DNA from: an uncultured archaeon
GTDB taxonomy: Archaea; Aenigmatarchaeota; Aenigmatarchaeia; GW2011-AR5; JAHLMP01
Assembly: GCA_964492465.1 (NCBI GenBank)
Contig: CAZBKL010000002.1
Coordinates: forward strand, 1-35,446
Direction: 5' to 3'
DNA: 35,446 nucleotides
Shown: positions 16,092 to 31,386 of the stretch, in pieces
How the letters are laid out: each line of letters starts with the position of its first letter
How positions within the stretch are numbered: position 1 is the first letter of the stretch
The notes under the pieces: model-generated
What the model was told of the DNA's origin: nothing
Databases searched by the model: none
Seen by the model: only the letters and a program-made list of their open reading frames with translations
Position numbers and translations under genes: made by a program

Positions 16092-16126
16092 ATTATAGAG
16101 TTTGATTTTCCTGAATTATAAAATGA

Positions 16127-16172
16127 TGTATAAACATATTGTATAAACATTTAGCTTATTTTGTATAAACAT
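16127..16172 (-). promoter_or_regulatory. Three direct copies of an 11-mer (TGTATAAACAT on +, ATGTTTATACA on -) upstream of the giant surface-protein gene
   Basis: Exact copies at 16127-16137, 16140-16150 and 16162-16172. The sense-strand core TTTATA is TATA-box-like. Confidence 0.5.
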
Positions 16173-16174
16173 CG

Positions 16175-16200
16175 TTTCATGATTGTTTTTTATCATGAAA
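16175..16200 (-). terminator. Hairpin TTTCATGAT-(8 nt)-ATCATGAAA just after the KaiC-like gene stop
   Basis: The 9-bp inverted repeat was read directly. It lies 6 nt downstream of the stop at 16206-16208 on the minus strand. Confidence 0.4.
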
Positions 16201-16205
16201 GCGCT

Positions 16206-17114: not shown

Positions 17115-17197
17115 TCTGGGCGTATATAAATCATGCTAAAATTGTGCAATTGTTTAAACATAATGCTTATCAACCCAAAAAGACAATAATTAATTGT

Positions 17198-17722
17198 ATG
17201 AATATGGAGCAGACAATAAAAGGAAATAAAATCCTGCTGTTTGTGGTATCAAACAAAAATTATATAAAAAACATAAATGAAATAGCTTATGGCGTTTCAA
17301 ATGTGAGCAGGAGCATAGTTTATGTTACCCTCAACAAGCCTTACAAAGTGCTTGTAGAATCCTTTGAAAAAAAGGGCATTAATGCGAAAAAAATGGCATT
17401 CATTGACTGTGCCAGCGGAAGCATCCAAAAGCCCAAGGACTATGATGTATTGTTTGTCTCTTCTCCGGAGGCCCTCACGGAATTGAGCATAACAATAAAC
17501 GAGACTATGAAAAAATCCACAAACATCATAATCTTTGATTCGGTATCCACACTCCTTGTGTACAAGGAGCCATCAATTGTCGTCAAATTCATCCACTCCA
17601 TGATATCCAAGATAAGGGCTGCTGACAAGAAATGCGTGATGATATCGCTGTCAGAGGATGCAAATAAAACAGTGCTGAAGGATATAGGGATGTTTATAGA
17701 CAAAATGGTTGTGCTGAAATAG
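17198..17722 (+). CDS. P-loop-less RecA/KaiC-fold protein (DUF835-like), paralog 1
   Basis: From ATG 17198, which avoids overlap with the divergent KaiC gene. It has a beta-alpha pattern like KaiC, but the Walker A position reads LLFVVSNKNYIK. Walker-B-like IIIFDSVSTLLVY. Motifs shared with 18293..18847: LNKPY, FxD, SPxxLxEL, FDxxSTLLxY, KFxHxMxS. Confidence 0.6.
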   Translation: MNMEQTIKGNKILLFVVSNKNYIKNINEIAYGVSNVSRSIVYVTLNKPYKVLVESFEKKGINAKKMAFIDCASGSIQKPKDYDVLFVSSPEALTELSITINETMKKSTNIIIFDSVSTLLVYKEPSIVVKFIHSMISKIRAADKKCVMISLSEDANKTVLKDIGMFIDKMVVLK

Positions 17723-17772
17723 CATTGGGGTATTAAAAAACCTTTATTAACCAGACTGATTATTATTAAATA

Positions 17773-18123
17773 ATGAGCTGTCCGTTATTTGTCGATTTTA
17801 CAAGAGAGTGTATAAAAGAAGTGGAATTCACTCCCACAGACACAACGGAATTCTGTGCAACAGAAAAATATGTTGACTGCCCTTTTTATAGACTATTGAT
17901 AAAAAAAGGGGATGTATGCAAAAATATCGGCAAATGCCCGGCATTCAAGAACTTTCAGGTTGGGGACTTCAACAAGTTTGTGGAAATCTCAAACAGGTTT
18001 TGCACATCTAAAAACCATGTGAGTTGTAAGAGATATATCACCAAAGAGAGCGGGCAGCCTGTGCCAATCAGCCTTCACCCGGACGGGAGCTTTGTTAAGG
18101 AGTGGGAAAACAAGCAGAGCTGA
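17773..18123 (+). CDS. Cys-rich small protein (8 Cys, 116 aa), function unknown
   Basis: MSCPLFVDFTRECIKE...FCATEKYVDCPFY...DVCKNIGKCPAF...RFCTSKNHVSCKRY. Spacings are C-x9-C, C-x7-C, C-x5-C and C-x7-C, which suggests metal or Fe-S binding. Confidence 0.5.
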   Translation: MSCPLFVDFTRECIKEVEFTPTDTTEFCATEKYVDCPFYRLLIKKGDVCKNIGKCPAFKNFQVGDFNKFVEISNRFCTSKNHVSCKRYITKESGQPVPISLHPDGSFVKEWENKQS

Positions 18124-18196
18124 CAATAGAACATACCCTGAAATAGACAGCAAAATGTAGATTTTTCAATGCTAAGCGGAATTCTGTTCTGAAAGC

Positions 18197-18218
18197 ACAT
18201 GTTTATACAAAAACATGT
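18197..18218 (+). promoter_or_regulatory. Inverted repeat ACATGTT-(8 nt)-AACATGT containing the 11-mer ATGTTTATACA, upstream of 18293..18847
   Basis: Read directly. The 11-mer at 18199-18209 is identical to the sense-strand repeat upstream of the giant gene. A TATA-like TTTTTTATATAGG follows near 18235-18247. Confidence 0.45.
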
Positions 18219-18292
18219 TAAATATAACTGTATTTGTTTTTTATATAGGGCACGTTTAATTAAAGTATGGATTTAAACAAAGGCGAGGGGGA

Positions 18293-18847
18293 ATGATTTC
18301 TGATATTCTGCACGAAATAACAACAAACAAGTTTCTGATAATTCTGATGAATGAGAACGAGTACACGAACAAGCTGAAGGAAATAGTTGAATCTGTGGAC
18401 AAGGACAACACCAGAATATGCTATGTATGCCTGAACAAGCCATACAGCTATGTTGTGGAAGACCTGAAATCAAGGGGTGTTGACACAAAAAACTTCTTTT
18501 TCCTGGACATACTGACTTCGCACTATGGAAAGCCGGAGCCTGCTGATAACTGTGTTTTTCTTGAATCCCCGTTAAATCTGGACGAACTCAAGAAGGCTGT
18601 GGATGGCATAGTCAGGGACAGTGGCTGTGAGGTAATACTTTTTGACACATTTTCCACGCTTCTCATATACCACAGGTCTTTCTCATTGATGAAATTCGCC
18701 CATAACATGAAAAGTGAAAAGCTGCAGGAGGAAACAAGGAAGCTCTTTATAGTGCTCAAGGAAGATATGCTTTCTGCAAACGAGGGGGGCTTTGCGAAGG
18801 ACCTTGAGATGTTTGCTGACAAGAATATAGAAATTTCATGCAAATAG
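18293..18847 (+). CDS. P-loop-less RecA/KaiC-fold protein (DUF835-like), paralog 2
   Basis: 184 aa. The Walker A position reads FLIILMNENEYT. VILFDTFSTLLIY is Walker-B-like. It aligns along its full length with 17198..17722. Confidence 0.6.
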   Translation: MISDILHEITTNKFLIILMNENEYTNKLKEIVESVDKDNTRICYVCLNKPYSYVVEDLKSRGVDTKNFFFLDILTSHYGKPEPADNCVFLESPLNLDELKKAVDGIVRDSGCEVILFDTFSTLLIYHRSFSLMKFAHNMKSEKLQEETRKLFIVLKEDMLSANEGGFAKDLEMFADKNIEISCK

Positions 18848-18921
18848 GGCCTTATGGCGCATGATGTGGAAAACGCGTGAATTCTGAAAGATTTAAATAA
18901 ATTGCTTTGAAGTATAAACTA

Positions 18922-19236
18922 ATGGCAGAGTTGTTAAATATAGACTTTAAAATGAAAAAAATTCTGGTCACGCTTGAGCTGTCGGCAGACGAGCACCAGA
19001 ATATAAAGCATCATAGGGAAATGCTGGTTGCGCCGACCAGCTCTTTTACAGATGTGCTGACTACCGGCACTCTCGGAAACAGCAACAGGATAATGCTTCC
19101 GAACAAGATACTTAAAAAAAACGATATTGCCAGGCTCAGGAAAAAGGTTCCCTGCTCTGTTTTAAAAATTAAAAAAGGGAGGTATCTTGTGATTGAGCTG
19201 GAAGGACCAAGCGCTGAGATACCTGAATTTAGATAA
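18922..19236 (+). CDS. AbrB/SpoVT-like small DNA-binding protein (tentative)
   Basis: NSNRIMLPNKILKKNDIARLRKKVPCSVLKIKKGRYLVIELEG resembles the swapped-hairpin AbrB motif (xxIPkeiRkklgi). The start is uncertain: TTG 18907, ATG 18922 or ATG 18952. Confidence 0.4.
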   Translation: MAELLNIDFKMKKILVTLELSADEHQNIKHHREMLVAPTSSFTDVLTTGTLGNSNRIMLPNKILKKNDIARLRKKVPCSVLKIKKGRYLVIELEGPSAEIPEFR

Positions 19237-19267
19237 ATAACCGGTTTTTTCATATTGATGTGGTGCT

Positions 19268-19945
19268 ATGAGGATAACAACAGGTCTTGAGAGATTGGAT
19301 GAGCTGATAGAAGGGGGCTTCCCTGAAAAGACTGCCATTCTGCTATCGGGCGGGCCAGGCGCAGGCAAAACCCTCATGGGCCTTAATTTTCTGATAGAGG
19401 GCGCGAAAAATGGTGAGAAATGCTGCTACCTTTCCCTGACAGAAAGCGAGGAAGAGCTGAAACGCGCTATTGACAGCATAGAATCCCTCAGGGCAGCAAA
19501 CGATTTTCTGGACAAGAATCTCATTCTCAAATGCATGGAGATCGGCGACGAGCTTTGCAATAATGTTGACTATTTCATAAAAACCATATCCACTTACCCG
19601 AAGCTCGACAGGATAGTGGTTGACAACATAAACAAGCTGCTTATATTTGCAGATACCAGAAAAAGCTACCGCATTAACGTGGTAAAATTAATAAAGCACC
19701 TTAAGGAGAAAGCAAACTGCTCCCTGGTTTTATGCGAGACTGAGGGGGATGTAGTGGACACCAAGAACGGGGAAGCATTTGAGTGCGACGGGGTAATTCA
19801 TCTGTCTTTCCTGGAGCTGGAGGAGAAACCTATGCGCACAATAAGAATCCAGAAGCTAAGGTACACAGACTTTGAGCCGCATGTTTCCAGGGAAATAATA
19901 ATCAACAAGAAATGCATCCGTATGGGACCGACCAAAGTAATATGA
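19268..19945 (+). CDS. KaiC/RadA-like single-domain RecA-superfamily ATPase
   Basis: 225 aa. TTGLERLDELIEGGFPEKTAILLSGGPGAGKTLMGLNF (Walker A), RIVVDNINKL (Walker B), and a KaiC-like C-terminus IRIQKLRYTDFE. Confidence 0.85.
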   Translation: MRITTGLERLDELIEGGFPEKTAILLSGGPGAGKTLMGLNFLIEGAKNGEKCCYLSLTESEEELKRAIDSIESLRAANDFLDKNLILKCMEIGDELCNNVDYFIKTISTYPKLDRIVVDNINKLLIFADTRKSYRINVVKLIKHLKEKANCSLVLCETEGDVVDTKNGEAFECDGVIHLSFLELEEKPMRTIRIQKLRYTDFEPHVSREIIINKKCIRMGPTKVI

Positions 19946-20005
19946 CGTGCGGCCGCCGGCAACAAATAAATTTCATTTATATTCTGCCCTTTTCTCTTAA
20001 TAGTT

Positions 20006-21019
20006 ATGAGAATGTCTGAGTCGCTGCGGAGAGGCACAATAGATGCAGTTACGGGGGTAATACTAAATCGGTTTAAAATAAAGAGCAGAAGAAATATGCT
20101 GTTTTTTGAGGACATACTTGCAAATTATGTAAAGACATGCGAACAAAACGGAAAGGGCGTTGAGATCAAGAAAATCAATCAAAAATGGGCCATATTATGC
20201 ATATCCCAGCTTATCCCACCTGTTCTCATAAGAATTCTTCCTGTTTCTATTTTGGCCCAAAGAATAAAGGGCGTATGGATTAATCTTGGTCTCGTTGAGG
20301 ATTTCAAAGTCGAAAAAAACGAAGATATAATAACCATCGTGACGAAAAATGAGTTCGTAACCAGGATTGTAAAAAACAATGTCTACATGTCGGGGGCATA
20401 TGAAGGTATCATAAATGAGGTTTTTGGGCTCGGTGCAATATGCATAGAAATTTCCCAAGACAAGAATATTAGTAAATACGTCTTCAAATTATCGGGTTCT
20501 CCTCCTGTTGTCAGGGGAAAGTATAAAAAAACTTACGATGCGCTGAACTCTTTTAAGTTTTTCGGGGGTTTTGGGCTCAAAGATGCGCTAAAATCCGGAA
20601 TTTTTCAATTAAGGAGTGATAATAGAATTTATTTCAGGGGAAAGTCCATAATTCCGATTGAAAATACGGTTTTTCATATATTCAGCAACCAAGGAATATT
20701 TTTAGAGGAGGTGCCAAAAATATCATTCGATTATTTCAGTAAATTGATAGAAATGGGCTCTTCAAACGAGCAAAAATTATCATTGCTTAAAAAACTGCTT
20801 CAGGCAATGGGCTGGGGTTCTATTAAGATGTCATTAAACGGACATAAAAATATTGCTATGGAGATTGCAAACCCACCATATGGATTGCAGACGGAACCCG
20901 ATAATTGGAGATTTTTGTCAATGGTTATTTTGGGATATTTCTGGTTATTAGATAATAGATTTGGAATTGATAATATTTATGAGAAACGCAATACCTTATT
21001 TATTTCATATGGCTGCTGA
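20006..21019 (+). CDS. Hypothetical protein with two V4R-like (4-vinyl-reductase / small-molecule-binding) halves (tentative)
   Basis: 337 aa. ITIVTKNEFVTRIVKNNVYMSGAYEGIINEVFGLGAICIEISQDKNISKYVFKL and LLQAMGWGSIKMSLNGHKNIAMEIANPPYG...LSMVILGYFWLL both resemble the V4R pattern, but they lack its usual Cys residues. Confidence 0.5.
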   Translation: MRMSESLRRGTIDAVTGVILNRFKIKSRRNMLFFEDILANYVKTCEQNGKGVEIKKINQKWAILCISQLIPPVLIRILPVSILAQRIKGVWINLGLVEDFKVEKNEDIITIVTKNEFVTRIVKNNVYMSGAYEGIINEVFGLGAICIEISQDKNISKYVFKLSGSPPVVRGKYKKTYDALNSFKFFGGFGLKDALKSGIFQLRSDNRIYFRGKSIIPIENTVFHIFSNQGIFLEEVPKISFDYFSKLIEMGSSNEQKLSLLKKLLQAMGWGSIKMSLNGHKNIAMEIANPPYGLQTEPDNWRFLSMVILGYFWLLDNRFGIDNIYEKRNTLFISYGC

Positions 21020-22042
21020 ACAAATATAATCAATTTCATTTCCTTCAGTTCTTCTCGCAAAGCAACCGGAAAGACATGTTTTAAATTTGCAGTATTTACA
21101 CTGGTCTGAAAATGTCAATTTTTCCTTATGCTCATTCAGCCTCTTTGAGTGGGTATTAATAAGTTTTCCATCTATCTGCAGGATATTATACATGGGTGTT
21201 CTGTCCATAGCACAGAAATAGACATCACCTTTGACTGATATCGTTGTGTAAAGACCAGCCAGCGCCACGCAATAACCCCCAGTTACGCTGAGGGCGGTCT
21301 GGAAATCGAGCGGATAGAGCGGGTCGCCAGATTCCACATTTACAGCTCCTGTCTCCTCTGCAAATCTTGTCAGCTTTTTGAGGGTCTCGATATAATCAGT
21401 CGGCAAAATGCTCATTTGCTCCTTTGCCCGCCCGGCGGGGGTCATGTCCCAAACACGGCACCGCTCCACTCCCAGCGAGCGGGCGAAATTGAATATTTCA
21501 AAAATTTCGCCCTCGTTTTCCTTTGTGAGAACAGTTTGTGATGTGCAAACGATGCCGGCGTCCTGTGCATTCTTCATGGCTTGCACAGACTTTTCAAAGG
21601 AGCCTTCGCGCCCTCTTATCTGGTCGTGCTTCCCCGGCTCTATGCTGTCTATGTTAATCTGGACCTGCGAAAGGCCGATTTCCTTCATCTCCTGCGCAAG
21701 CTCTCTTGTAAGCAGCCAACCGTTTGTATTCATGTGCACTATAAAACCGCGGTCGCTCGCCTCTTTTACAGCTTCCCTTATGTACGGATGCACAAGCGGC
21801 TCCCCGCCTGAAAAAGTCACCTGCATGACCCCTCCGCTTTTCAGTGTGTCAAGAATTTTTTTAACATTGTCCAGGCTCATGTGCTCGCCATTCTGGGTTG
21901 AGCTTGCATAGCACCATTTGCAGTTCAGGTTGCATGCTTCTGTAATCTCGAGCACGACCCATGACAGCGACCTGTTCCTGTCAAAATTCCTGAATTTCTC
22001 CCCCGCGTCCGTATGCTTCCAGCCGAATGTCACCACGCACAT
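21005..22042 (-). CDS. Radical SAM enzyme with a C-terminal SPASM/twitch-type auxiliary cluster domain
   Basis: 345 aa. LEITEACNLNCKWCY (CxxxCxxC), FSGGEPL, NTNG, and a C-terminal CKYCKFKTCLSGC. Confidence 0.85.
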   Translation of the reverse strand: MCVVTFGWKHTDAGEKFRNFDRNRSLSWVVLEITEACNLNCKWCYASSTQNGEHMSLDNVKKILDTLKSGGVMQVTFSGGEPLVHPYIREAVKEASDRGFIVHMNTNGWLLTRELAQEMKEIGLSQVQINIDSIEPGKHDQIRGREGSFEKSVQAMKNAQDAGIVCTSQTVLTKENEGEIFEIFNFARSLGVERCRVWDMTPAGRAKEQMSILPTDYIETLKKLTRFAEETGAVNVESGDPLYPLDFQTALSVTGGYCVALAGLYTTISVKGDVYFCAMDRTPMYNILQIDGKLINTHSKRLNEHKEKLTFSDQCKYCKFKTCLSGCFARRTEGNEIDYICSAAI

Positions 22043-22069
22043 CCCAAATAACCCGCAAATACGCTTATC

Positions 22070-22849
22070 TTACAGCAAAAACAGCCACAAATCAAGAAAA
22101 GCAAAAGACATCATGCCAAAACTATGCGCAAAGCCAAAATTGTTTCTGATAAGCTCAATAAGCACTATAAAATTGCATACGAGGATTATGCATAACCTGC
22201 TGAAGTCAAATGCTGCGAGCATACCTGTCAGAAAAATCAGGGCATAAATCATTTTTTTAATTTTGGCTGGCCCGAAAATCACCGGCAGGGTATTTATGCC
22301 CGCATCTTTGTCGCCCTCATAATCCCTCAAATCCGACAAAATGCTTCCTGCGAGGATGAACAAATAAAACTCAGTATAATAAAACAAAGTCCCTGCATCA
22401 ATATAGCCGTATCCCACAAGAAACAGCTGCGATATCAAAAAAGCTGTGTACAAATTTTTTATCAAAGGATGTTTTTTAATTCTGAAATGAGAGTAGGCGA
22501 TACCAGTGACAATAAACGTGAGTATGAAAAAAGCTGAATAGAAAGTGAGCGAAAACGAAAGCATGATGCTGGTAAGTGCGCAGCATGAGACAACTGCCAA
22601 ACCGAGTTTTTTATTCAAAACAAGCCTGTTCAGACTACCCCTGTTTTTCAGGTCCTCCTCTTTGTCCGTTATATTGTTGTATGAGTAAACAGCTGCGCAT
22701 GCAAAAAAGGAGCATGCCAGCACGAAAGCCGCAGAAATGCCGTGCGCTGACAGCAGTATTCCCGCAAGAGCCAGGAGAGAGGCTGAGATGCATATCCTAA
22801 CCCTGATAAAATTCAGGAATTCCATGACCATTTCTGCAACCAGGACCAT
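22070..22849 (-). CDS. UbiA-superfamily prenyltransferase, paralog 2
   Basis: 259 aa, about 8 TM helices. First Asp-rich motif NNITDKEEDL, second motif DLRDYEGDKDAGINTLP. Confidence 0.75.
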   Translation of the reverse strand: MVLVAEMVMEFLNFIRVRICISASLLALAGILLSAHGISAAFVLACSFFACAAVYSYNNITDKEEDLKNRGSLNRLVLNKKLGLAVVSCCALTSIMLSFSLTFYSAFFILTFIVTGIAYSHFRIKKHPLIKNLYTAFLISQLFLVGYGYIDAGTLFYYTEFYLFILAGSILSDLRDYEGDKDAGINTLPVIFGPAKIKKMIYALIFLTGMLAAFDFSRLCIILVCNFIVLIELIRNNFGFAHSFGMMSFAFLDLWLFLL

Positions 22850-23656
22850 TCATAAACCACTCATAACATAAATATATGGCGTGAGAAATTCCACAAGCAC
22901 AATCCTTCCGCGAACTTTCCTGGTTATTGTCCTGTTATGAATTTTTTTCAGGTTCAGTATTTTTGCAGAAAGGTTGATTACCCACGGGACTGCCATTGCA
23001 GGCGAATATATCAACCCGCCAAATGAAACCAGCGAAACCGCAGCTGCTGTTATGCAAATCATCCATGCCATTTTCAATTTGTTCGCAAGAAAGAGGTTTG
23101 TATCATCCTTTTTGTCAGTAGAATCCTTTTGGCATCCGATGTACAGGTATTGAGACATGCAAAAAACCGTTAGAGAAATTATGGGCAGGCTCATACTCTC
23201 CATAAAAAAATAATTCAGCGAAATAATTGTTACAAGCCAGGTGGTGGTCGCGAGCAGATAACACTTGATATGATACTTCTTAAGCCGTACCCTTTTGTTG
23301 GAGTAGGCAAAAAGCAAAACGGCATAATAAATTCCTGCGGCTAGCAGAACATTGCTGAATGAAGAAAGAATTAACAGGCCGAATAACAGGGATAAAAATG
23401 AGAGATTCCTCATTCCTTTTGGGGTCATAAATTTATTTACAGACAGCTTGTCATGCCTGGCATTCCTTACATCTTCATGATAATCACAGAAGTCATTGTA
23501 GATGTCGCCGAACAGGTGGACCAGAAAAAAGCCAGTGGCAATTAGGAGCAGGCTGGCACTTATATTTGAAGTCAGTGCGCCGTACATCAATATAAATCCA
23601 AACGTGAGTCCCATCCCTGGACGGACCCTTTTATATATTAAATATGGAAGTTTCAA
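22850..23656 (-). CDS. UbiA-superfamily prenyltransferase, paralog 1 (divergent)
   Basis: 268 aa, polytopic. YNDFCDYHEDVRN (NDxxDxxxD) and a second acidic patch QKDSTDKKDD. The track start is a TTG overlapping the upstream stop; ATG 23614 is an alternative. Confidence 0.7.
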   Translation of the reverse strand: MKLPYLIYKRVRPGMGLTFGFILMYGALTSNISASLLLIATGFFLVHLFGDIYNDFCDYHEDVRNARHDKLSVNKFMTPKGMRNLSFLSLLFGLLILSSFSNVLLAAGIYYAVLLFAYSNKRVRLKKYHIKCYLLATTTWLVTIISLNYFFMESMSLPIISLTVFCMSQYLYIGCQKDSTDKKDDTNLFLANKLKMAWMICITAAAVSLVSFGGLIYSPAMAVPWVINLSAKILNLKKIHNRTITRKVRGRIVLVEFLTPYIYVMSGL

Positions 23657-24783
23657 ATCACCATCCCCTGCTTATGCATACTGCTGCATAATCGCAACAC
23701 CTCTTCCTCGGAGAAAGCTCTCTTCTGCTGCTCTGACTCGCTCTTTATATGCTTCAGGAAGCCATCCAAGCTGTTCTCTGATAAGTGCACGTCAGTCTTT
23801 TCCAGTACATGCTTCAGGGCATTTTTTCCACTGTGCTTGCCGAACCTGAACTTTCGCCTGCATCCTATAAGTTCTGGTTCAAATGGCTCGAAGGTCAAAG
23901 GATGCTTTAATACAGCATCTGAATGTATGCCAGACTCATGAGAGAATATATTGCTTCCGATAATGGGCTTGTGTGGGTGTATCCTTACGCCAGAATATTT
24001 CTCAACGAGGTCGCATATTTCCTTTATTAATCCGTATCTGACATTCATTTCCATGTTTTCGAGGCATTTTAGAGCGACGCAAACTTCCTCTATTGGCGCA
24101 TTGCCTGCGCGTTCCCCTATTCCTGTAAAAGTTCCAGAAAACGCATCAGCCCCGGCTTTAATGCCTGAAATGGTATTGGCAGTTGCCATGGAAAAATCAT
24201 TATGAACGTGCATGCCGATTCTGCATCTGGTCTCTTTCTTGATGCTGGAAACAAATCCCGCAACTTCCGAAGGCCTAAGGTGCCCTACTGTGTCAGCGAT
24301 GTAAAAAATATCTATGGAATCTTCAATGCTCTTCATGAACTTCAGGAGATATGTATAATCTGCTCTTGTTGAGTCCATGCCGGCAAAGCTTATTTTCAGT
24401 CCAAGCCTGTTGGCGTATTTCACTGACTCTATTGCCCTTCTGAGGTTTGTTCTCCTGTCGTTTCCGAATTTTGGGCCGAGAAAAATGTCAGAGACTGGTG
24501 CAAAAAGGGTTATTTTTTTAATACCAAGGCTCTTAACCTGATTGATATCATCCTTTCTCATACGGCAGGTTGCAGAAATCTTGTCATGATATCTTTCTGC
24601 CAGCTCTTTTGCCAAGCGTGCCTCTGAATCAGAAACAGCAGGCATTATGTCAATCTCATCAACGCCAAATTCAACGAATTTTTCAGCCAACTCAATCTTT
24701 TCCTCGCTCGTGAACACTATGTCAGGCATCTGTTCACCGTCGCGCAAAGTCGTGTCGTGTATGTATATTTTTGTCAGGGGCAT
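23653..24783 (-). CDS. Homocitrate/2-isopropylmalate/citramalate synthase family enzyme (HMGL-like DRE-TIM, no LeuA regulatory domain)
   Basis: 376 aa. IHDTTLRDGEQMP, HVHNDFSMATANTISGIKAGA and GIGERAGNAPIEEV are present. Confidence 0.85.
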   Translation of the reverse strand: MPLTKIYIHDTTLRDGEQMPDIVFTSEEKIELAEKFVEFGVDEIDIMPAVSDSEARLAKELAERYHDKISATCRMRKDDINQVKSLGIKKITLFAPVSDIFLGPKFGNDRRTNLRRAIESVKYANRLGLKISFAGMDSTRADYTYLLKFMKSIEDSIDIFYIADTVGHLRPSEVAGFVSSIKKETRCRIGMHVHNDFSMATANTISGIKAGADAFSGTFTGIGERAGNAPIEEVCVALKCLENMEMNVRYGLIKEICDLVEKYSGVRIHPHKPIIGSNIFSHESGIHSDAVLKHPLTFEPFEPELIGCRRKFRFGKHSGKNALKHVLEKTDVHLSENSLDGFLKHIKSESEQQKRAFSEEEVLRLCSSMHKQGMVI

Positions 24784-24993
24784 GAAATCCGCTTTTGTTT
24801 AAATGTATATATATTTAATAATAATCTTATACATATAATGTATTTATATATATAATAAAATAACAAATATAATAAATTTTTATTACTAGTTATGAATTAA
24901 TAGTTATGCTATAACATTGAACTGATGGGTGTGATTAGAAGGGTACCCTAAAAGATAACAACCTTTTTAAGTAACCGGAATAAGAAAATAATA

Positions 24994-25362
24994 ATGAAAA
25001 AGAAGCTTATTATGATTGTTGACGACGAAGAGAACATCCGTGAGTTTCTTACTGTCATTCTGGAAAAGGAAAATTTTGATGTGGTAACTGCTTCTGACGG
25101 GCAAGACTGCCTTAATAAGCTTAAGACCATAAAGCCAGACCTGATACTTCTTGATATGATGATGCCCGTGATGTCTGGGAGGGAGGTTGCTGAGAAAATA
25201 AGGAAGAGCCCTGATACAAAAAACCTCAAGATAGCATTTGTCACAGTTGCGCGATTTTCTGAGCTTGGAAAAGACACGCTTTCCAAACTGAATGTTTTGG
25301 ATTACATAACAAAGCCTTTTGACAACGAGAAACTTATAGAAAGGGTGAAGAAGCTGGCTTAG
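24994..25362 (+). CDS. Stand-alone CheY-like response regulator receiver
   Basis: 122 aa. IMIVDDEENI, LILLDMMMPVMSG (phospho-Asp context), and KIAFVTV with a downstream K. Confidence 0.9.
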   Translation: MKKKLIMIVDDEENIREFLTVILEKENFDVVTASDGQDCLNKLKTIKPDLILLDMMMPVMSGREVAEKIRKSPDTKNLKIAFVTVARFSELGKDTLSKLNVLDYITKPFDNEKLIERVKKLA

Positions 25363-25444
25363 AAGGCGGTTTCTGCAAAAGGCAATGATACTCTTCCCGC
25401 GCCATTAGAAACAAGGACAATTATGACCAAAGGTGTTTCTGCAT

Positions 25445-27703
25445 TTAATCATTTTTTCTTGGATTTTTAATAGGTATCCTGAAGCTGAACTCGCTCCCCT
25501 TTCCAAGTTCGCTCTTAAACCATATCTCACCGCTCATGGCTTTTACATATTCTTTCGAGAGAGCAAGCCCAAGCCCTGTGCCGCCAGCTTTCCTTGTGTA
25601 TGACGAGTCAACCTGAAAGAACCTTTCAAAGAGCCTTTTCTGGTCTTTTTCTGCTATCCCTATTCCCGTGTCCTTAACGCTAAAAATGACAAAGCCATTT
25701 TCTACGTGCACTTTCATAGTTATGGTCCCCTTTGGTGTATATTTTACAGCATTGTTGATGAGATTGAGCAGGACTTCTATAAGCCTGTCTTTGTCAGTGA
25801 AAATTTTGGGCAGATCCTTTTCTATATCCTGTTCCAGTTCCATATTCTTCTCCTTTGCAAGCATAGCAGCTTCTTTCATCACATCTTCCATAAGCATGTT
25901 AAGATCGGTTTCTTCTTCGTTAAGCTTGAATGTGCCCAGATCTATTCTCGAGAGGTCCAGTATGTCTGTGACGAGTTTTGCAAGCCTGTTGGTTTCCTTG
26001 TCCACTATTTTCAGGTACTTGCCCCTTTTCTCATCATTTTTTATTATGTCTTTGTCTTGCAGGAGCTGCGAAAAGCCATGGATAGAAGTAAGCGGTGTCT
26101 TGAGCTCATGGGCGGCGACTGATATAAATTCATCTTTTTTCTTGTCCATCTCCTTCAGCTTTTCAAGATTAATCTTGAGTTCTCCGTGCGTTTTTATAAG
26201 CTCTTTGTTTGCCTCATCCGAATCTTCCATCATGTTGAGAATCGCAGTCTGTATGTCATTCAGTTCTTTTACCTTTGATTCCAGTTCTGCTGTCCGCTCA
26301 GCAACCTGCTTTTCAAGGGTTTTGCTGTATTCTTCAAGCTTTTTCCTAGATTCTTTCAGATCTGTAGTCATCTCGCTGAAAGAGGATGCAAGCTGACCTA
26401 TTTCATTGCTTGATTTTATATCGGGTTTTATATCAAAATTGCCTCTGGATATTTCCTTGATGTTTTCTGTCAATTTTTGAATAGGCTTGACCATACGGTT
26501 AGTGTACAGAACACCGAGAAGCCATGCCACCATGATAATAGCCAAGCCCGTGGGCAAAATGTAAAGGTAAATCATCCTCTGTTCAGACTCCTCTACTTTT
26601 TTTTGCATATCACTGACAGCCTTCAGTACAACCTCCTTTTCCACGACAATGCCAAGGCTGAACCCTGTGCTTTTCAGGGGTGCATATGCAACGTAGAGTT
26701 CTTTATTGTCCAGGCTCATGTTCTGAAAACCGGAAAGACCGCTTTTCATTTTGTTTATGACGGGACCGAATTCATTTGTGATATTGCTGAGATTGGTGCG
26801 CGACTCATTTGCACTGCGAATTCTGCCAAACATATCTTTGTATGCCTGTTCCGGAAGCGCGATAGAATATCTTTCTTTGTCTATAAGGAATGCGTAAGAA
26901 TGTTCTATAGGATTATATTCTTCGATGTTTTTTATTATGGCTTTCAGAGTTACATCAATGCCCAACACACCATAAAATCCTTTTTTAGTATAAATTGGCG
27001 CTGATGTAGTTATCATGAGCCCCTGCCCTGCAGGATCGTCATACACGGGCGTCCATACAACCGTTTTATTGGGGTTATTCTCAGGATTGGCAATTGCGAC
27101 AAAGACCTCTTCGATAAATTTTTCGTCCGGGGGCGCTATATTTCCAAGACCGATGTTGGGGTAGTACCGTGCATAGTATTCTGACTTATTTACAATGCCC
27201 ACAATCCAGATTGCAACAGCATTTGGCTCGTTTTGAAGCGACATGGGAAATACGTTGTCAAGATATGCGCTTAGCTCCGCGCCTTTTTTCAGGTCATCGG
27301 TGATATCAATATGATTTGGTATGAATAACGAAGAGGTTTCGTTCATGCCGTTAAGGTGTTGTCCATGCTCGCCAACAAAAACATGTTCATCAAATTTCCA
27401 ATAATTTTCTATTGCAAATGCGTCAGGATTATCAAACACATTTTTTGCATATGCCGCTACACTACTCGCATCCTTCCATATATTGTCAAAGACCATATCA
27501 TTTTTGTCAGCCGCCTGTTGTGTAAGCTGCAGCAGGAAATTCTCTGACTGGGAACTCAAGACAGAAGAAGTAATCTGCCTAGCTTCGTATCCCGTATTTG
27601 TGATCGAAACGGTGCCTATATATGCAGTGATGCCTATTGACACTGCAATAAGAATCAGTAGAAAAGCTATCATTTCTGTTTTAATGCTTTGCTTAATCTT
27701 CAT
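25445..27703 (-). CDS. Sensor histidine kinase: TM - dCache - TM - HAMP - coiled coil - HisKA - HATPase_c
   Basis: 752 aa. dCache-like LMITTSAPIYTKKGFYGVLGIDVTL, HAMP NRMVKPIQKLTENIKEISRGNFD, H-box FISVAAHELKTPLTSI, N box LLNLINNAVKYT, G boxes VKDTGIGI and GGTGLGLA. Confidence 0.92.
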   Translation of the reverse strand: MKIKQSIKTEMIAFLLILIAVSIGITAYIGTVSITNTGYEARQITSSVLSSQSENFLLQLTQQAADKNDMVFDNIWKDASSVAAYAKNVFDNPDAFAIENYWKFDEHVFVGEHGQHLNGMNETSSLFIPNHIDITDDLKKGAELSAYLDNVFPMSLQNEPNAVAIWIVGIVNKSEYYARYYPNIGLGNIAPPDEKFIEEVFVAIANPENNPNKTVVWTPVYDDPAGQGLMITTSAPIYTKKGFYGVLGIDVTLKAIIKNIEEYNPIEHSYAFLIDKERYSIALPEQAYKDMFGRIRSANESRTNLSNITNEFGPVINKMKSGLSGFQNMSLDNKELYVAYAPLKSTGFSLGIVVEKEVVLKAVSDMQKKVEESEQRMIYLYILPTGLAIIMVAWLLGVLYTNRMVKPIQKLTENIKEISRGNFDIKPDIKSSNEIGQLASSFSEMTTDLKESRKKLEEYSKTLEKQVAERTAELESKVKELNDIQTAILNMMEDSDEANKELIKTHGELKINLEKLKEMDKKKDEFISVAAHELKTPLTSIHGFSQLLQDKDIIKNDEKRGKYLKIVDKETNRLAKLVTDILDLSRIDLGTFKLNEEETDLNMLMEDVMKEAAMLAKEKNMELEQDIEKDLPKIFTDKDRLIEVLLNLINNAVKYTPKGTITMKVHVENGFVIFSVKDTGIGIAEKDQKRLFERFFQVDSSYTRKAGGTGLGLALSKEYVKAMSGEIWFKSELGKGSEFSFRIPIKNPRKND

Positions 27704-27707
27704 CTAA

Positions 27708-28208
27708 TCACTTATTTTTGCTTTCCATCTCTTCGGCCCTCTTTTTCATCTCAGCCATCTTCAGTTCCCTGCCGACTGCAAGCTTCCTGAACTTCTCAAG
27801 TTCCACGACCTTTGATTCCAGTTCCTTCTTGAGCTTTTCCAAGTCATTTGTCCGCTCTCTTACGGCTGACTCTATTTCGTCACTTCTTTTTTTCAAATCC
27901 TCGGTAGCTTTTTTGCTCTCATGTATCTTCCTGATGCTTGAAAGCGACAGCGAAACGACCAGAAATACATATATGGCCCCAAAGCAGTATATCGCACTTA
28001 TCATAAGCTTGTCATCAAGCTGTATGTTTGAGATTTCAACAAATATTTGAAATATATAACCTACAAAAAAGAAGAGCGTGAGCAGGGACAAAATTATCCA
28101 GTATTTTTTCGTGCTCCCCTCCTCAGTGATTTTTATAATGCCCATGTACTTGAAGAAGGATAAAATAAAAACTGCCGCCCCAATTCCGATTAAAATTACA
28201 TTTATCAT
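27708..28208 (-). CDS. Small membrane protein (about 4 TM) ending in a signalling-type coiled coil with no output domain
   Basis: 166 aa. The C-terminus is ...VRERTNDLEKLKKELESKVVELEKFRKLAVGRELKMAEMKKRAEEMESKNK. Its start overlaps the upstream gene by 4 nt, and its stop is 4 nt from the HK start. Confidence 0.6.
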   Translation of the reverse strand: MINVILIGIGAAVFILSFFKYMGIIKITEEGSTKKYWIILSLLTLFFFVGYIFQIFVEISNIQLDDKLMISAIYCFGAIYVFLVVSLSLSSIRKIHESKKATEDLKKRSDEIESAVRERTNDLEKLKKELESKVVELEKFRKLAVGRELKMAEMKKRAEEMESKNK

Positions 28209-29107
28209 TTTTTAACACCTTTCTCCAGCTCTTCGATCCTCTTCTTCAGCTCAATCATTTTCAGTTCCCTGCCCACGGAAAGCTTTGTAAACTTCTCGAG
28301 TTCAACAACCTTGCCTTTAAGCATCTCTTCCATTTTTTTACTGTCCTCGATGTCCATTACCATTCCTGAGAGTATGTCTCCGTCGATGGTGGCGCTTATC
28401 ACGACATTTTTTACCTCCCCGTTTTTTGTGATAAACTCAGTCTCAAAACTGCTTACCTTCCCGTTTTTTTTCAATTCTTCCAGGAATCTTGCCCTGTCGG
28501 CCGGGTTTTTGTATATCGAGACGACTTCTTTGTTTTTCATCTCATCATAATTTTCAAATCCGAGCAATTTTGCCAGTGCGTCATTGGTAAAAAGGAACTT
28601 TCCGTCCGCAGTCGTTTTGTAAATGCCGATAAGGGAATTGTCAACAAGTCCCCTGTACTTCTTCTCTGATTTTGCCACTTCTTCTTCTGCCTTCTTCCGT
28701 TTGGTTATGTCATGGGAAATCCCTATCATCGAAGTCACTTCGCCGGAACTGTTTTTTACAGGAGAAAGCCTGATTTCGACCCAATAATCTTCGCCCGAAG
28801 TTTCGTGTATCTCGCTATATAACGGCTCGCCTTTCTCAAAGACTTTTTCTATGCCATTCTGGAGAAATTTCAGGCTTTCCTGCGGGAATATGTTCTTGAT
28901 GTCTATGCAGACATTTGCGTCTTTTTTCAGCTTGAATCCCTTGGCAGCCGCAGAATTGACAAACGTGATGCATCTGCTCTTGTCAATCAGGTATATTTTG
29001 TCTGTTATCGATTCAGCCAGCGTCCTGTAAAGCTCCTCGCTCTTTTTGATTTTTTCCTCGCCATTTTTTTGTTCTGTAATATCTCTTGCGCTAATCATGG
29101 TGTTCAT
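28205..29107 (-). CDS. Cytoplasmic tandem PAS/PAC sensor protein ending in the same coiled-coil motif, with no output domain
   Basis: 300 aa. Two PAS/PAC units (SEELYRTLAESITDKIYLID..., ISHDITKRKKAEEEV..., EKKYRGLVDNSLIGIY...). The C-terminus is KGKVVELEKFTKLSVGRELKMIELKKRIEELEKGVKK. Confidence 0.8.
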   Translation of the reverse strand: MNTMISARDITEQKNGEEKIKKSEELYRTLAESITDKIYLIDKSRCITFVNSAAAKGFKLKKDANVCIDIKNIFPQESLKFLQNGIEKVFEKGEPLYSEIHETSGEDYWVEIRLSPVKNSSGEVTSMIGISHDITKRKKAEEEVAKSEKKYRGLVDNSLIGIYKTTADGKFLFTNDALAKLLGFENYDEMKNKEVVSIYKNPADRARFLEELKKNGKVSSFETEFITKNGEVKNVVISATIDGDILSGMVMDIEDSKKMEEMLKGKVVELEKFTKLSVGRELKMIELKKRIEELEKGVKK

Positions 29108-29128
29108 CTTTTTTCAAAGGCAGAAATC

Positions 29129-29410
29129 ATGATTGTGAAGAACCGCTGGTCAATAGACCTTGGCTCTTACACGCCGCAAACCACCAGTCTGCACATTAGG
29201 AATGACATTGTCATTCCTATGCATGAGAATATAAAGTATTCCCAATGGGCTGGTGGCATTGCTACGTATAAAAATTATATTTCCTGGCTTATATACAGCG
29301 CTGCATTTATATTTAAGCTGCATATGTTTAAACCTCGGCAGGAGCAAAATTTTTCAAAAATCCCGAAATTAAAAAATATTATTAGCCTGAAAAACAAGAG
29401 CTTAGCATGA
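29129..29410 (+). CDS. Possible small ORF translationally coupled (ATGA overlap) to the archaeosortase-like gene; very uncertain
   Basis: 93 codons from ATG 29129. Its stop TGA at 29408-29410 overlaps the ATG at 29407. The region also carries an antisense ORF (29150..29347), so it may simply be a 300-nt divergent promoter region. Confidence 0.2.
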   Translation: MIVKNRWSIDLGSYTPQTTSLHIRNDIVIPMHENIKYSQWAGGIATYKNYISWLIYSAAFIFKLHMFKPRQEQNFSKIPKLKNIISLKNKSLA

Positions 29411-29979
29411 AAAAGCGCAAGAATCTGGCTGAAAAAAAATATAAAAACAGCAAGATGCTGAAAAAGGTCCTGAAATTCCTAATTCTCTTCAACATCTTTT
29501 CCATACCGCTTTACATAATTCTGCTGACAGGATACAGCTTCCCGCCTCTCCAGTTCGCGACAGCGCAGGCTGTTGATTCTTTTCTCAATGCTTTTGGAAT
29601 AAAAAGCCAACTCAGTGGCTTGATAATATCTGTGCCTGAGCCTTCAGGAAGCTTTGCCGGACATATAAGCTGGGACTGCACAGGTTGGAAATCCATGCTC
29701 GCATTTGCAGCTCTGGTTCTGGCAACAGATGCCAAAAGAAACAAGAAGCTGCTTGGGCTGGCGCTGATTCCAATAATATATGCATTTAACATATTCAGGG
29801 TGACATCTGTCTTTGCCCTTGTTTCAATCTTCGGTGCCCAATACTTCCCGACAATCCATGCCATAATGTTCAGCTTTGCCATGGTGGCGTTCATCCTGCT
29901 GCTCTGGGTGGCGTGGCTGAAGCATGTCAATGTCTATGATACTCGCTCAAAGAAGCCCAAGAAGAAGAAAAATAAATAA
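29407..29979 (+). CDS. Exosortase/archaeosortase-family transpeptidase (short form)
   Basis: 190 aa, polytopic. Candidate catalytic triad: ISWDCTGWKSM (Cys), AFNIFRVTS (Arg), PTIHAIMF (His). Basic C-terminal tail. Confidence 0.7.
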   Translation: MKKRKNLAEKKYKNSKMLKKVLKFLILFNIFSIPLYIILLTGYSFPPLQFATAQAVDSFLNAFGIKSQLSGLIISVPEPSGSFAGHISWDCTGWKSMLAFAALVLATDAKRNKKLLGLALIPIIYAFNIFRVTSVFALVSIFGAQYFPTIHAIMFSFAMVAFILLLWVAWLKHVNVYDTRSKKPKKKKNK

Positions 29980-30840
29980 AATAGAAAAGGGTAGCGATAT
30001 TGAAATAAGATTTGCCGCATATCTGGTATCAAGCTTGTTATCTTTTGCAAAAATTATTGTGATTATGCTAGTTGGCAGAGATGCTCCCACGATCACCGCT
30101 ATTCTTTCCAGTCCGCTGAGACCGAAAAGAAATGAAACTAAAAGACCCAGAGCCAAGCCTGAGAATGCTTTAAGCAGCATAGCAAGAAAAGGCAACTTCA
30201 GAGAGGATTTTGTTGGCTCAAACTCCAAAGCAACCAGCAGCATCACGAGGACTATTGTTCCGCTTCCTATGATGCCAAAAAGATTTGACAGGAAATCGTT
30301 CCTGAATCCGCTGATGTTTAGCAAAACTCCTAATATTATTGCCCATATAAGCGGGGTTTTGAAAACACTTGAAATGCTATGAAAAATGTCAGATGACTTT
30401 TTTCCAAGAATATTCGCAAGTGTGTATATCACGATAAACTCAAAGAAAATATTAGCAGCGTCAAATATCACTATTCTCGACAGCCCAATCTTACCAAAAG
30501 CTGCGAGCATGAAAGCATATCCTATTGTGCCTATCTCGAGTGTCGGAAAAGTTATTATGAAAGAGGCAAAAGTCTTTCCCTTTAGCCTTAAAACCTGAGC
30601 TGAAAAATATCCTATGAAAAGAAGAGAGGCTACGATGATTATTGCTGAAAGCGGGATGAAGAAAAGGCTGTATTCAAAACTCATGCTCCATATAGCATCT
30701 ATTATTATCGCCGGAACCACGATGTTCAGAATCAGCCTGCTTAAAACCCCGGAATCTTCTTTTTTCAATATTTTGAATTTTTTCAGCAAAAATCCGATAA
30801 TAAATATGACAATTATAGGCAGTACCTTTTCAAGAACCAT
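29947..30840 (-). CDS. AEC-family (auxin efflux carrier-like) membrane transporter
   Basis: 297 aa, about 9-10 TM. The N-terminus MVLEKVLPIIVIFIIGFLLKKFKILKKEDSGVLSRLILNIVVPAII is typical of AEC/Mem_trans proteins. Confidence 0.8.
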   Translation of the reverse strand: MVLEKVLPIIVIFIIGFLLKKFKILKKEDSGVLSRLILNIVVPAIIIDAIWSMSFEYSLFFIPLSAIIIVASLLFIGYFSAQVLRLKGKTFASFIITFPTLEIGTIGYAFMLAAFGKIGLSRIVIFDAANIFFEFIVIYTLANILGKKSSDIFHSISSVFKTPLIWAIILGVLLNISGFRNDFLSNLFGIIGSGTIVLVMLLVALEFEPTKSSLKLPFLAMLLKAFSGLALGLLVSFLFGLSGLERIAVIVGASLPTSIITIIFAKDNKLDTRYAANLISISLPFSILFIFLLLGLL

Positions 30841-30897
30841 ATCTATTATTTTACGAGCAACTTATAAATCCTATGCGCAATTATAACTTTAGCAATC

Positions 30898-31097
30898 GGG
30901 CCCATGGTCTAACGGCATGACGCTACCTCGGCATGGTAGAGGTTGCGGGTTCAAAACGGTTTTTCTTTCTTTACCGAGAAAGAAACCCCGTCGTATGCTC
31001 GAAATGCAAAAGCATTTCGGCACCTTAAGAAAGCTCTGCTTTCTGCAGGAAAGAAAAAGCAAAGACGGTAAAGTCGATGAAAATCCCGCTGGGTCCA
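30898..31097 (+). tRNA. tRNA-Ala (anticodon GGC) interrupted by a ~128-nt insert in the T-loop; no encoded CCA
   Basis: 5' part, 30898-30955: GGGCCCA TG GTCT AACGGCA TGAC G CTACC TCGGCAT GGTAG AGGTT GCGGG TTCAAA. 3' part, 31084-31097: T CCCGC TGGGTCC A. Joined, they give a 72-nt cloverleaf with G3:U70 and A73 (alanine identity), G18G19 and a T-loop TTCAAAT. ORF 30889..31368(-) is spurious. Confidence 0.75.
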
Positions 31098-31113
31098 TAT
31101 TTAATTGATTTGT

Positions 31114-31386
31114 ATGATGAAGCGCTTCCATATTTTTATTTCCGGCCAGGTTCAGGGCGTCAATTACCGCTCTTTCACAAAGAAATGCGCAATGCTTCTG
31201 GAAATAAAGGGCTTTGCCAGGAACCTTCCAGACGGCAGAGTCGAGCTCGTGGTCGAAGGCCAGGAGCATGACCTCAAAGAATTCCTCGCAAAGCTGCGTG
31301 TGGGTCCCGATGCAGCTTCTGTTGAAGCTTTGACAAAGGAAGATGAAGAATTCAAAAACGAGTTTCATTCTTTTGAAATATTATGA
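31114..31386 (+). CDS. acyP: Acylphosphatase
   Basis: From ATG 31114: MMKRFHIFISGQVQGVNYRSFTKKCAMLLEIKGFARNLPDGRVELVVEGQEHDLKEF, which is the canonical V-x-G-x-VQGV-x-FR ... N-x-x-DG-x-VE pattern. Confidence 0.85.
   Translation: MMKRFHIFISGQVQGVNYRSFTKKCAMLLEIKGFARNLPDGRVELVVEGQEHDLKEFLAKLRVGPDAASVEALTKEDEEFKNEFHSFEIL

Follow-up and report, generated by a model that had tools for sequence, protein, structure and literature searches.

In the 35,446-nucleotide (nt) stretch of archaeal DNA analyzed here (contig CAZBKL010000002.1, hereafter the window), positions 30898-31097 of the forward strand hold a 200-nt gene for tRNA-Ala(GGC), in which GGGCCCAUGGUCUAACGGCAUGACGCUACCUCGGCAUGGUAGAGGUUGCGGGUUCAAA is followed by 128 nt and then by UCCCGCUGGGUCCA. 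With high probability, this is a functional tRNA-Ala(GGC) gene of a member of the Aenigmatarchaeota that carries a 128-nt, protein-spliced intron of the bulge-helix-bulge (BHB) type between tRNA positions 59 and 60. The parts of the gene are the following.

30898-30955, forward strand: exon 1, 58 nt, tRNA positions 1-59, with the acceptor 5′ strand GGGCCCA, the D arm, the anticodon arm CUACC/UCGGCAU/GGUAG and the variable loop AGGUU
30930-30932, forward strand: anticodon GGC, with C33 at 30929
30945-30949, forward strand: T-stem 5′ strand GCGGG, within exon 1
30950-30955, forward strand: T-loop UUCAAA, within exon 1
30956-31083, forward strand: intron, 128 nt, at tRNA position 59/60
31084-31097, forward strand: exon 2, with U60, the T-stem 3′ strand CCCGC, the acceptor 3′ strand UGGGUCC and the discriminator A73; CCA is not encoded

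This anatomy agrees with a preliminary description of the locus, which had read the 5′ 58 nt as the acceptor 5′ strand through the T-stem 5′ strand plus TTCAAA, and had placed the matching T-stem and acceptor strands 128 nt downstream, where U-CCCGC-UGGGUCC-A is indeed found at 31084-31097. In particular, when every possible segment around the insert was removed and each product was given to ARAGORN, joining 30955 to 31084 produced a 72-nt tRNA-Ala(GGC), so that the joined cloverleaf proposed in that description is also accepted by a tRNA finder. The alanine identity set is complete, comprising G3:U70, A73 and the anticodon GGC as read from the sequence, and ARAGORN agrees with it.

Standard tRNA finders miss the gene because its T-loop is interrupted by a folded intron of 128 nt. 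ARAGORN reports no tRNA anywhere in the native 35-kb window; Rfam at gathering thresholds has no match in the native window, and in an E-value search of the whole window Rfam has no match at E up to 1. With the E-value set permissively, the tRNA model of Rfam matches part of the gene (30898-30953) at 19 bits, skipping the T-arm. The same behavior extends to related loci: in the window and in four complete orthologs, Rfam at gathering thresholds makes no tRNA call at the locus, and ARAGORN makes none either, except at L004, which is miscalled as a tRNA-Asp with an intron. Further, an open reading frame (ORF) of 159 amino acids on the reverse strand (30889-31368) covers the tRNA with its intron and most of the downstream acylphosphatase gene; it has no Pfam match, overlaps the acylphosphatase and is almost certainly spurious, though a gene caller could annotate it and thereby mask the tRNA.

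The splice junction is marked by a helix that extends the T-stem. The unconstrained minimum-energy fold of the 200-nt precursor retains the acceptor, anticodon and T stems, and in the same fold the T-stem GCGGG/CCCGC is prolonged by a 4-bp helix of UUCA (30950-53) with UGAA (31078-81). The UUCA/UGAA helix also forms when the cloverleaf is imposed as a constraint, and enforcing the cloverleaf and the helix together costs at most 3 kcal/mol in all five complete introns. As in archaeal BHB introns, each strand of the 4-bp central helix leads into a bulge of about 3 nt with a splice site in it, and removal of the insert restores a canonical cloverleaf. The two strands, with arrows at the predicted cleavage sites, are as follows.

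30950-30953, forward strand: 5′ strand of the BHB central helix, UUCA (T-loop 54-57), then the 5′ splice bulge A30954 A30955↓A30956
31078-31084, forward strand: 3′ strand of the BHB central helix, UGAA (31078-81), then the 3-nt bulge A31082 A31083↓U31084 with the 3′ splice site

BHB cleavage falls after the second bulge nucleotide, as in the canonical 37/38 case. Applied to the UUCA/UGAA motif, this rule places the intron at 30956-31083, that is, at 59/60, and predicts a mature T-loop of UUCAAAU. BHB motifs have a 3-4-3 geometry (PMC3239211), and the pairing rule used throughout was that exon nucleotides -6 to -3 pair with intron nucleotides -6 to -3; in a rule-based scan of all exon/intron boundaries, the 59/60 site comes out on top for both the window and L012. 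The earlier placement of the insert at about 59/60 is borne out by this rule and by orthologs that are interrupted at the same point, and 59/60 is, as had been stated, among the listed non-canonical intron sites of archaea (PMC4090602). The outer helix of the motif is the 5-bp T-stem. A strict hBHBh′ motif, with flanking helices on both sides and true 3-nt bulges, is the requirement of the narrow-specificity alpha4 and alpha'2 splicing endonucleases; the motif here is best described as relaxed and of the hBH type, not as a strict 3-4-3 hBHBh′. The preliminary description had been unable to draw a canonical BHB, which holds for the strict form, whose inner helix is weak and offset, but not for the relaxed hBH-type motif, which can be drawn on UUCA/UGAA. 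Moreover, the junction that it had considered ambiguous within the flanking A-runs is fixed uniquely by the relaxed motif.

The motif recurs in related genomes. Syntenic metagenome contigs were fetched via homologs of the flanking radical SAM and acylphosphatase genes (a further contig, reached through the EF-2 homolog P0188, stops before the tRNA region), and the following loci carry an intron in the T-loop.

L003: 72 nt, same point, complete
L012: 68 nt, same point, complete
L013: 80 nt, same point, complete
L016: 73 nt, same point, complete
L017: at least 133 nt, same 3′ junction, with the contig end inside the intron
L005, L006 and L007: at least 66 nt, same 3′ junction, with UGGA replacing UGAA (UGGA-AU↓U); the contigs end

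L016 stems from the sample ENA ERZ27247916 and L017 from JGI 3300052988, both of which contain close relatives. The junction in L003, L012, L013 and L016 reads GCGGG-UUCA-AA↓R ... UGAA-A(A/U)↓U-CCCGC. Across all orthologs with a T-loop intron, UGAA-AA↓U or UGAA-AU↓U (UGGA-AU↓U in L005-7) stands immediately before CCCGC, and the adjoining intron sequence differs. Exon 1 is identical to that of the window at 58/58 positions in L012 and at 55/58 in L003 and L013, and exon 2 is identical in all orthologs. Overall, the exons are 95-100% identical while the neighboring proteins are just 60-67% identical, and BLAST between the introns of the orthologs finds no similarity. The five distinct spliced sequences have a cloverleaf that is 100% paired, with G3:U70 invariant (5/5); all five anticodon-stem pairs covary, with both sides changed, at a score that 0/500 shuffles reach and that slid controls fall far below. 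By these comparisons the gene is under strong purifying selection.

These results bear directly on the scenario that the preliminary description had named as its refutation, in which the locus is a dead tRNA with 128 nt of foreign or mobile DNA in its T-loop, either similar to a miniature inverted-repeat transposable element (MITE) or an integration scar, and hence a decaying pseudogene or a remnant of an att site. Such a reading would explain why ARAGORN and Rfam see no tRNA, would accommodate the atypical C33 and could take the A-runs flanking the insert as a short target duplication. The exon conservation beside diverged introns, together with the anticodon-stem covariation, contradicts it. 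The compensatory change in the anticodon stem and the conservation of the junction motif also speak for a working tRNA; further, no second instance of the insert exists in the window or the fetched loci, there is no integrase among the neighboring ORFs and no duplicated tRNA segment nearby, and the insert dates back at least to the origin of the subclade. On this balance, a dead tRNA is highly improbable. An att site of an integrative element was rejected on the same two absences, the interruption itself consisting of 128 nt of non-coding hairpins.

The predicted product of splicing occurs in uninterrupted form in a close relative. At L004 (7409-7524, reverse strand) the T-loop is uninterrupted, and the continuous T-arm GCGGG-TTCAAAT-CCCGC equals the predicted ligation product. 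In the same gene, a 43-nt insert interrupts the D arm after nucleotide 23 (about position 23/24) and forms a perfect 4-bp central helix, GCUA/UAGC, under the same BHB rule; this junction was placed by hand with that rule, as the ARAGORN deletion scan is too permissive for the D-arm junction of L004. With these placements, the position of the intron differs between close relatives at one locus. More distantly, an intron-free tRNA-Ala(GGC) is present at L015 (5151-5222, reverse strand), an Aenigmatarchaeota-related, syntenic locus adjoining an archaeosortase gene, and at L008 (276-346, reverse strand) from the Woesearchaeota, where it scores 55.6 bits with the Rfam tRNA model. Because distant relatives are intron-free, the intron is a derived feature of one subclade. 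L008 comes from a search for further relatives in which genome and metagenome contigs were scanned for the pattern of the tRNA 5′ end, GGGCCCATGGTCTAACGG, giving four loci (L008-L011). ARAGORN calls L009 a tRNA-Thr(GGT) with an intron, and from its G3:U70 and A73 it can instead be read as an Ala(GGC) gene with a 37/38 intron, a reading with which ARAGORN disagrees, so that both assignments stand. L008 and L009 are useful as outgroups, whereas L010 is a different tRNA and L011 has no recognizable tRNA.

The same comparisons speak to whether the insert is removed at all. If it were retained, the mature tRNA would keep a 128-nt structured expansion on its T-loop, and the compact fold of the insert, with hairpins kept by compensatory changes (see below), would be in line with this. 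Against retention, no T-loop insert is needed at L004 or in the outgroups L015 and L008, insert length varies between 68 nt and at least 133 nt, and the conserved element of the insert is exactly the splice-site geometry; moreover, the D-loop/T-loop elbow of tRNA needs a seven-nucleotide T-loop. Retention is thus barely conceivable. With the insert taken as a spliced intron, the ortholog series offers a snapshot of how, at one locus, an intron is gained, grows and relocates: the subclade has introns of 68-80 nt, those of the window (128 nt) and L017 (at least 133 nt) are expanded, and L004 would have lost the T-loop intron and gained one in the D arm.

The interior of the intron is strongly folded. 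The insert alone folds to -42.9 kcal/mol, compared with -26.2 ± 3.3 for 200 dinucleotide-preserving shuffles of it (z = -5.1; 0/200 as good), in agreement with its earlier characterization as highly structured. Its elements are listed below.

30960-30964, forward strand: T5 run
30962-30985, forward strand: P1 hairpin, UUUCUUUCUU/GAGAAAGAAA
30988-30992 with 31065-31069, forward strand: possible closing stem P2, CCGUC with GACGG
30996-31022, forward strand: hairpin with the core CGAAAUGC-AAAA-GCAUUUCG
31023-31049, forward strand: hairpin with the core AGAAAGC-UCU-GCUUUCU
31050-31064, forward strand: purine-rich run

The local hairpins named in the preliminary description are present; the pairing that it had drawn across the insert, CUUUACCG (30969-30976) with CGGUAAAG (31066-31073), exists in the sequence but is unused in the minimum-energy fold and is unconserved in relatives. 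A homologous P1, whose 5′ strand is U-rich and whose 3′ strand is A-rich (CUUUUUUUUCUUUU/AAAAGAAAAAAAAG in L003), occurs in six T-loop introns (window, L003, L012, L013, L016 and L017); L017 shows only the 3′ strand, as its contig starts inside the intron, and the contigs of L005-7 end before the P1 region. The short introns consist of P1 and then a second hairpin, P2, with a purine-rich loop (AAAGAAAGAA), and the long form common to the window and L017 has two additional hairpins inside P2. Between the window and L017, the 8-bp hairpin CGAAAUGC/GCAUUUCG becomes CAAAACAC/GUGUUUUG, a change in which three pairs have both partners replaced and no pair is lost, and the outer stem of the following hairpin changes from CCU/AGG to CACUCA/UGAGUG; the three compensatory pairs were counted by hand, RNAalifold having mis-registered hairpin 2 by one column in its comparison of the two. 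Judged from these changes, the compact fold is maintained by selection, or by a process at the DNA level that preserves palindromes. Its simplest reason would be that a long intron must not disturb the folding of the cloverleaf or the presentation of the splice sites.

Several known types of element were considered for the insert. A dispersed repeat or mobile element was rejected, as BLAST, used to look for further copies of the intron across the window and all fetched loci, returned nothing beyond chance matches of 8-14 nt; the window, L016 and L017 each have a single occurrence of the hairpin motif GAAAGC-N-GCTTTC. A search for Rfam families in the intron region at E up to 10 gave only weak matches far under the gathering scores and no intron family, and the sub-threshold matches to AaHKsRNA20, snoR100, sR52, sraL, IsrM and sR47 were treated as chance. 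Group I and group II introns have a conserved catalytic core that covariance models detect, and a length well above 128 nt. A self-splicing intron of either group was rejected on the lack of an Rfam intron match at E up to 10 and on the insert being just 128 nt long. Neither a C box (RUGAUGA) nor a D box (CUGA) is present in 30956-31083, and none is conserved in the alignment; an intron-borne box C/D guide was rejected, the C/D snoRNA matches scoring 14 and 10 bits, where the cut-offs are 50 and 40, and extending beyond the intron. No H/ACA features were found in the intron, and none of the six reading frames of the region contains a meaningful ORF.

The insert could also represent a conserved, modular family of structured RNAs in one Aenigmatarchaeota subclade, with a function beyond that of a passive intron, although this is rather unlikely. 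The family picture would comprise the U-rich/A-rich P1, a P2 with a purine-rich loop, further hairpins that the long forms carry within P2 or P1, and compensatory upkeep. If such a family exists, its function could be exerted by the excised, stable and probably circular RNA, or in cis by an oligo-T/P1 attenuator that sets the output of full-length tRNA-Ala(GGC) and of the acylphosphatase mRNA.

Three further observations concern the hairpins. The purine-rich run in the P2 loop (window 31050-31064) resembles the P1 3′ strand (30976-30985), containing AAAGAAAGAA or AAAAGAAAA, and the equivalent runs of L003, L012, L013 and L016 do so too; it could pair alternatively with the U-rich 5′ strand of P1, and the resemblance may be a matter of chance in low-complexity sequence. 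At L016 (136-155, forward strand) a hairpin, GGAAAGCAT-CAGA-ATGCTTTCT, lies between the tRNA and the acylphosphatase gene and resembles the GAAAGC-NNN-GCTTTC hairpins of the window and L017 introns; small hairpin modules of one type may have been inserted repeatedly around the locus. In addition, five contigs of independent assemblies end in the tRNA gene or its intron (L005 at 8080, L006 at 6153, L007 at 2126, and L016 and L017 at 1). The likely cause is the perfect low-complexity palindrome of P1, which would break de Bruijn graphs, the alternative being intron variants within the populations.

The flanks of the gene indicate how it may be transcribed, and contain two relevant features.

30862-30869, forward strand: TATA-box-like element TTATAAAT, about 30 nt upstream of tRNA position 1, a candidate archaeal promoter
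31114-31386, forward strand: acylphosphatase gene (PF00708, E = 6.7e-26), starting 16 nt past the tRNA 3′ end

Comparable TATA-like elements (CTTTATAAAT and CTTTTAAAT) lie at the same upstream distance in L004 and L003. The adjacency of tRNA and acylphosphatase is also found in L003, L004, L012, L016 and L017, and the distance from the tRNA 3′ end to the acylphosphatase start is about 15-35 nt in the window (gap 31098-31113), L003, L004, L012 and L017. As this gap is too short for a TATA box of its own, the acylphosphatase is probably expressed from a tRNA-mRNA co-transcript, from which its mRNA would be released by tRNA 3′ processing. Oligo-T runs can terminate archaeal transcription. Such runs lie inside the 5′ end of the intron, with T5 in the window (30960-30964), T8 in L003, T5 in L012, T6 and T5 in L013, and only T3 in L016, and they could attenuate both the full-length precursor and the downstream mRNA.

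The same runs suggest another arrangement, that of a split tRNA, in which the 5′ transcript stops at the oligo-T, the 14-nt 3′ part comes from another transcript, and the BHB-like helix brings the two together for joining in trans. Runs of T5-T8 stand within about 20 nt of the 5′ splice site in all T-loop inserts whose 5′ end is available, except L016 (T3), and split tRNAs joined through BHB motifs exist in the Nanoarchaeota (PMC4033280). However, the two parts here are 128 nt apart on the same strand, no TATA-like element is seen by eye in the 3′ half of the insert, and the insert forms local hairpins instead of the long leader/trailer duplex that is typical of split tRNAs. The acylphosphatase, moreover, has no room for a promoter, which implies read-through. 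A split tRNA is accordingly very unlikely.

Under the favored reading of a spliced intron at 59/60, the proposed course of events is as follows. Transcription would start from the TATA-like element about 30 nt upstream, and the pre-tRNA would take up the cloverleaf while the intron folds on itself into three local hairpins. The 4-bp UUCA/UGAA helix would extend the T-stem, presenting the AA↓U 3′ bulge and AA↓A on the 5′ strand in a relaxed, hBH-type motif. The archaeal splicing endonuclease EndA, expected in this lineage in a broad-specificity form, would cut after the second bulge nucleotide on each side, and a ligase of the RtcB type would join the exons into a 72-nt tRNA with the T-loop UUCAAAU. 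The intron would be released, probably as a circle. The host needed for tRNA splicing by EndA and RtcB is present, as the window is archaeal by its FEN-1, its aEF-2 and its best protein matches.

Several observations weigh against this reading. The boundary scan has low specificity in U/A-rich introns, with the 59/60 site tied in L003 and outside the top four shown for L013. The intron-side helix of the 5′ bulge is weak in the window (CGGU/GUCG, offset by one extra A) and inconsistent among the orthologs, being GCAA/UUGU adjoining the central helix in L003 and absent or alternative in L012 and L013. Because the motif is not a strict hBHBh′, a broad-specificity EndA would be required, and no EndA domain was found by Pfam among the window ORFs. 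The T5 run within the intron (T8 in L003) is a potential terminator, and the near-universal U33 of elongator tRNAs is replaced, although U33 is not a feature of alanine identity. Further, at 128 nt the intron exceeds the length of generally less than 100 nt stated for archaeal tRNA introns (PMC4033280), as its earlier description as long had implied. The overall proposal of a long, structured, non-canonical intron of archaeal type is nevertheless upheld by the archaeal host, the valid joined tRNA-Ala, the shared insertion point and the spliced-like T-arm of L004.

Its closest known counterpart is found in ARMAN-2 (Candidatus Micrarchaeum, DPANN), where a 13-nt hBH intron at 59/60 of pre-tRNA-Cys(GCA) is cut in vitro by an epsilon2 EndA, and where tRNA-Pro carries two T-loop introns (PMC3239211). 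The tRNA-Cys intron shares with the present one the DPANN host, the T-loop site 59/60 and a relaxed motif with the T-stem as the outer helix; it differs in being only 13 nt long and in having its cleavage assayed, whereas the intron described here is 128 nt long, has three internal hairpins and resides in tRNA-Ala(GGC) of the Aenigmatarchaeota. Kaneta et al. found EndAs with an L3 loop across the DPANN and a raised level of tRNA gene disruption, and pointed out that incomplete DPANN tRNA sets indicate undetected disrupted genes (PMC5829648). In the Thermoproteales and other Crenarchaeota, non-canonical BHB introns occur at 20/21, 22/23, 25/26, 53/54, 56/57, 59/60 and other sites (PMC4090602, PMC4033280). 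Like these, the present intron has splice sites that are defined by structure and transplantable, is missed by standard tRNA finders and shifts its position between close relatives (the T-loop in the window and the D arm in L004). The crenarchaeal introns are mostly short, whereas here one intron family persists at one site across a subclade and grows by the addition of hairpins; a spread of the same intron sequence to other tRNA genes, as a further difference, was not found in the window and fetched loci, which cover a small part of the genome. The tRNA-Trp intron of Haloferax volcanii, about 105 nt long, lies at the canonical 37/38 site and carries a box C/D guide RNA. It is likewise a long archaeal tRNA intron with a conserved structure of its own, and differs from the present one in its position and its box C/D elements, as the latter lies at 59/60 and has no C or D box. 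No published description of such an intron in the Aenigmatarchaeota was found in the literature searched. Overall, the intron is an unusually long, new case of a known archaeal kind, with a mechanism that is ordinary for archaea.

The locus leaves the known mechanism of archaeal tRNA splicing unchanged, and its noteworthy features are the length of the intron, its modular growth with compensatory changes, its relocation in a close relative and the fixed C33. It shows concretely why the tRNA sets of DPANN genomes look incomplete, and the junction rule UUCA-AA↓N ... UGAA-AN↓U-CCCGC could be used to search for further hidden tRNAs in them.

The unusual C at position 33, which had been noticed at the outset, is confirmed at 30929. 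The same anticodon loop residue is present in L003, L004, L012 and L013, within an anticodon stem that covaries, and the outgroups L015 and L008 have U33. By this distribution C33 is real and fixed in the intron-bearing subclade. C33 has precedents in the tRNA-Cys(GCA) of the Sulfolobales (PMC7668247) and in eukaryotic initiator tRNA-Met (PMC5041475), with which it shares a rare, clade-fixed character; the differences here are the tRNA identity, an elongator Ala(GGC), and the lineage. For elongator tRNAs, few published precedents of C33 exist. The fixed C33 would make this the second archaeal elongator tRNA with such a rare feature.

The remaining content of the window identifies its host. A Pfam domain search of the ORFs recognizes FEN-1 (XPG_N/XPG_I), aEF-2, eIF5A, ribosomal protein S10, RNA 3′-phosphate cyclase, a beta-CASP nuclease and an archaeosortase. 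Every named best match of the window EF-2 is to Candidatus Aenigmatarchaeota metagenome-assembled genomes (65-74% identity), as is every named best match of the AmmeMemoRadiSam radical SAM enzyme encoded near the tRNA. By these matches, the host is a DPANN archaeon of the Aenigmatarchaeota. The radical SAM ORF is 380 amino acids long in the window, and its true start probably gives about 348. The EF-2 of the window has 722 amino acids; the EF-2 homologs P0229, P0251, P0298 and P0306, by comparison, have about 1215-1225 and contain two additional Pfam domains, PF14528 and PF14890, which we take to be intein and homing-endonuclease domains and which the window protein does not have.

The gene order around the tRNA differs from that of its relatives. 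In L003, L004, L012 and L013, the order is eIF5A, archaeosortase and tRNA, each adjoining the next, whereas in the window about 18 kb separates eIF5A from the archaeosortase (about 11856-29400), and a Mem_trans transporter gene lies between the archaeosortase and the tRNA (29947-30840). The 18-kb block encodes a 1411-amino-acid surface-type protein with Laminin_G_3, KaiC-like ATPases, a PAS/HAMP histidine kinase with a response regulator, two UbiA prenyltransferases and an HMGL-like synthase, and may be a lineage-specific insertion.

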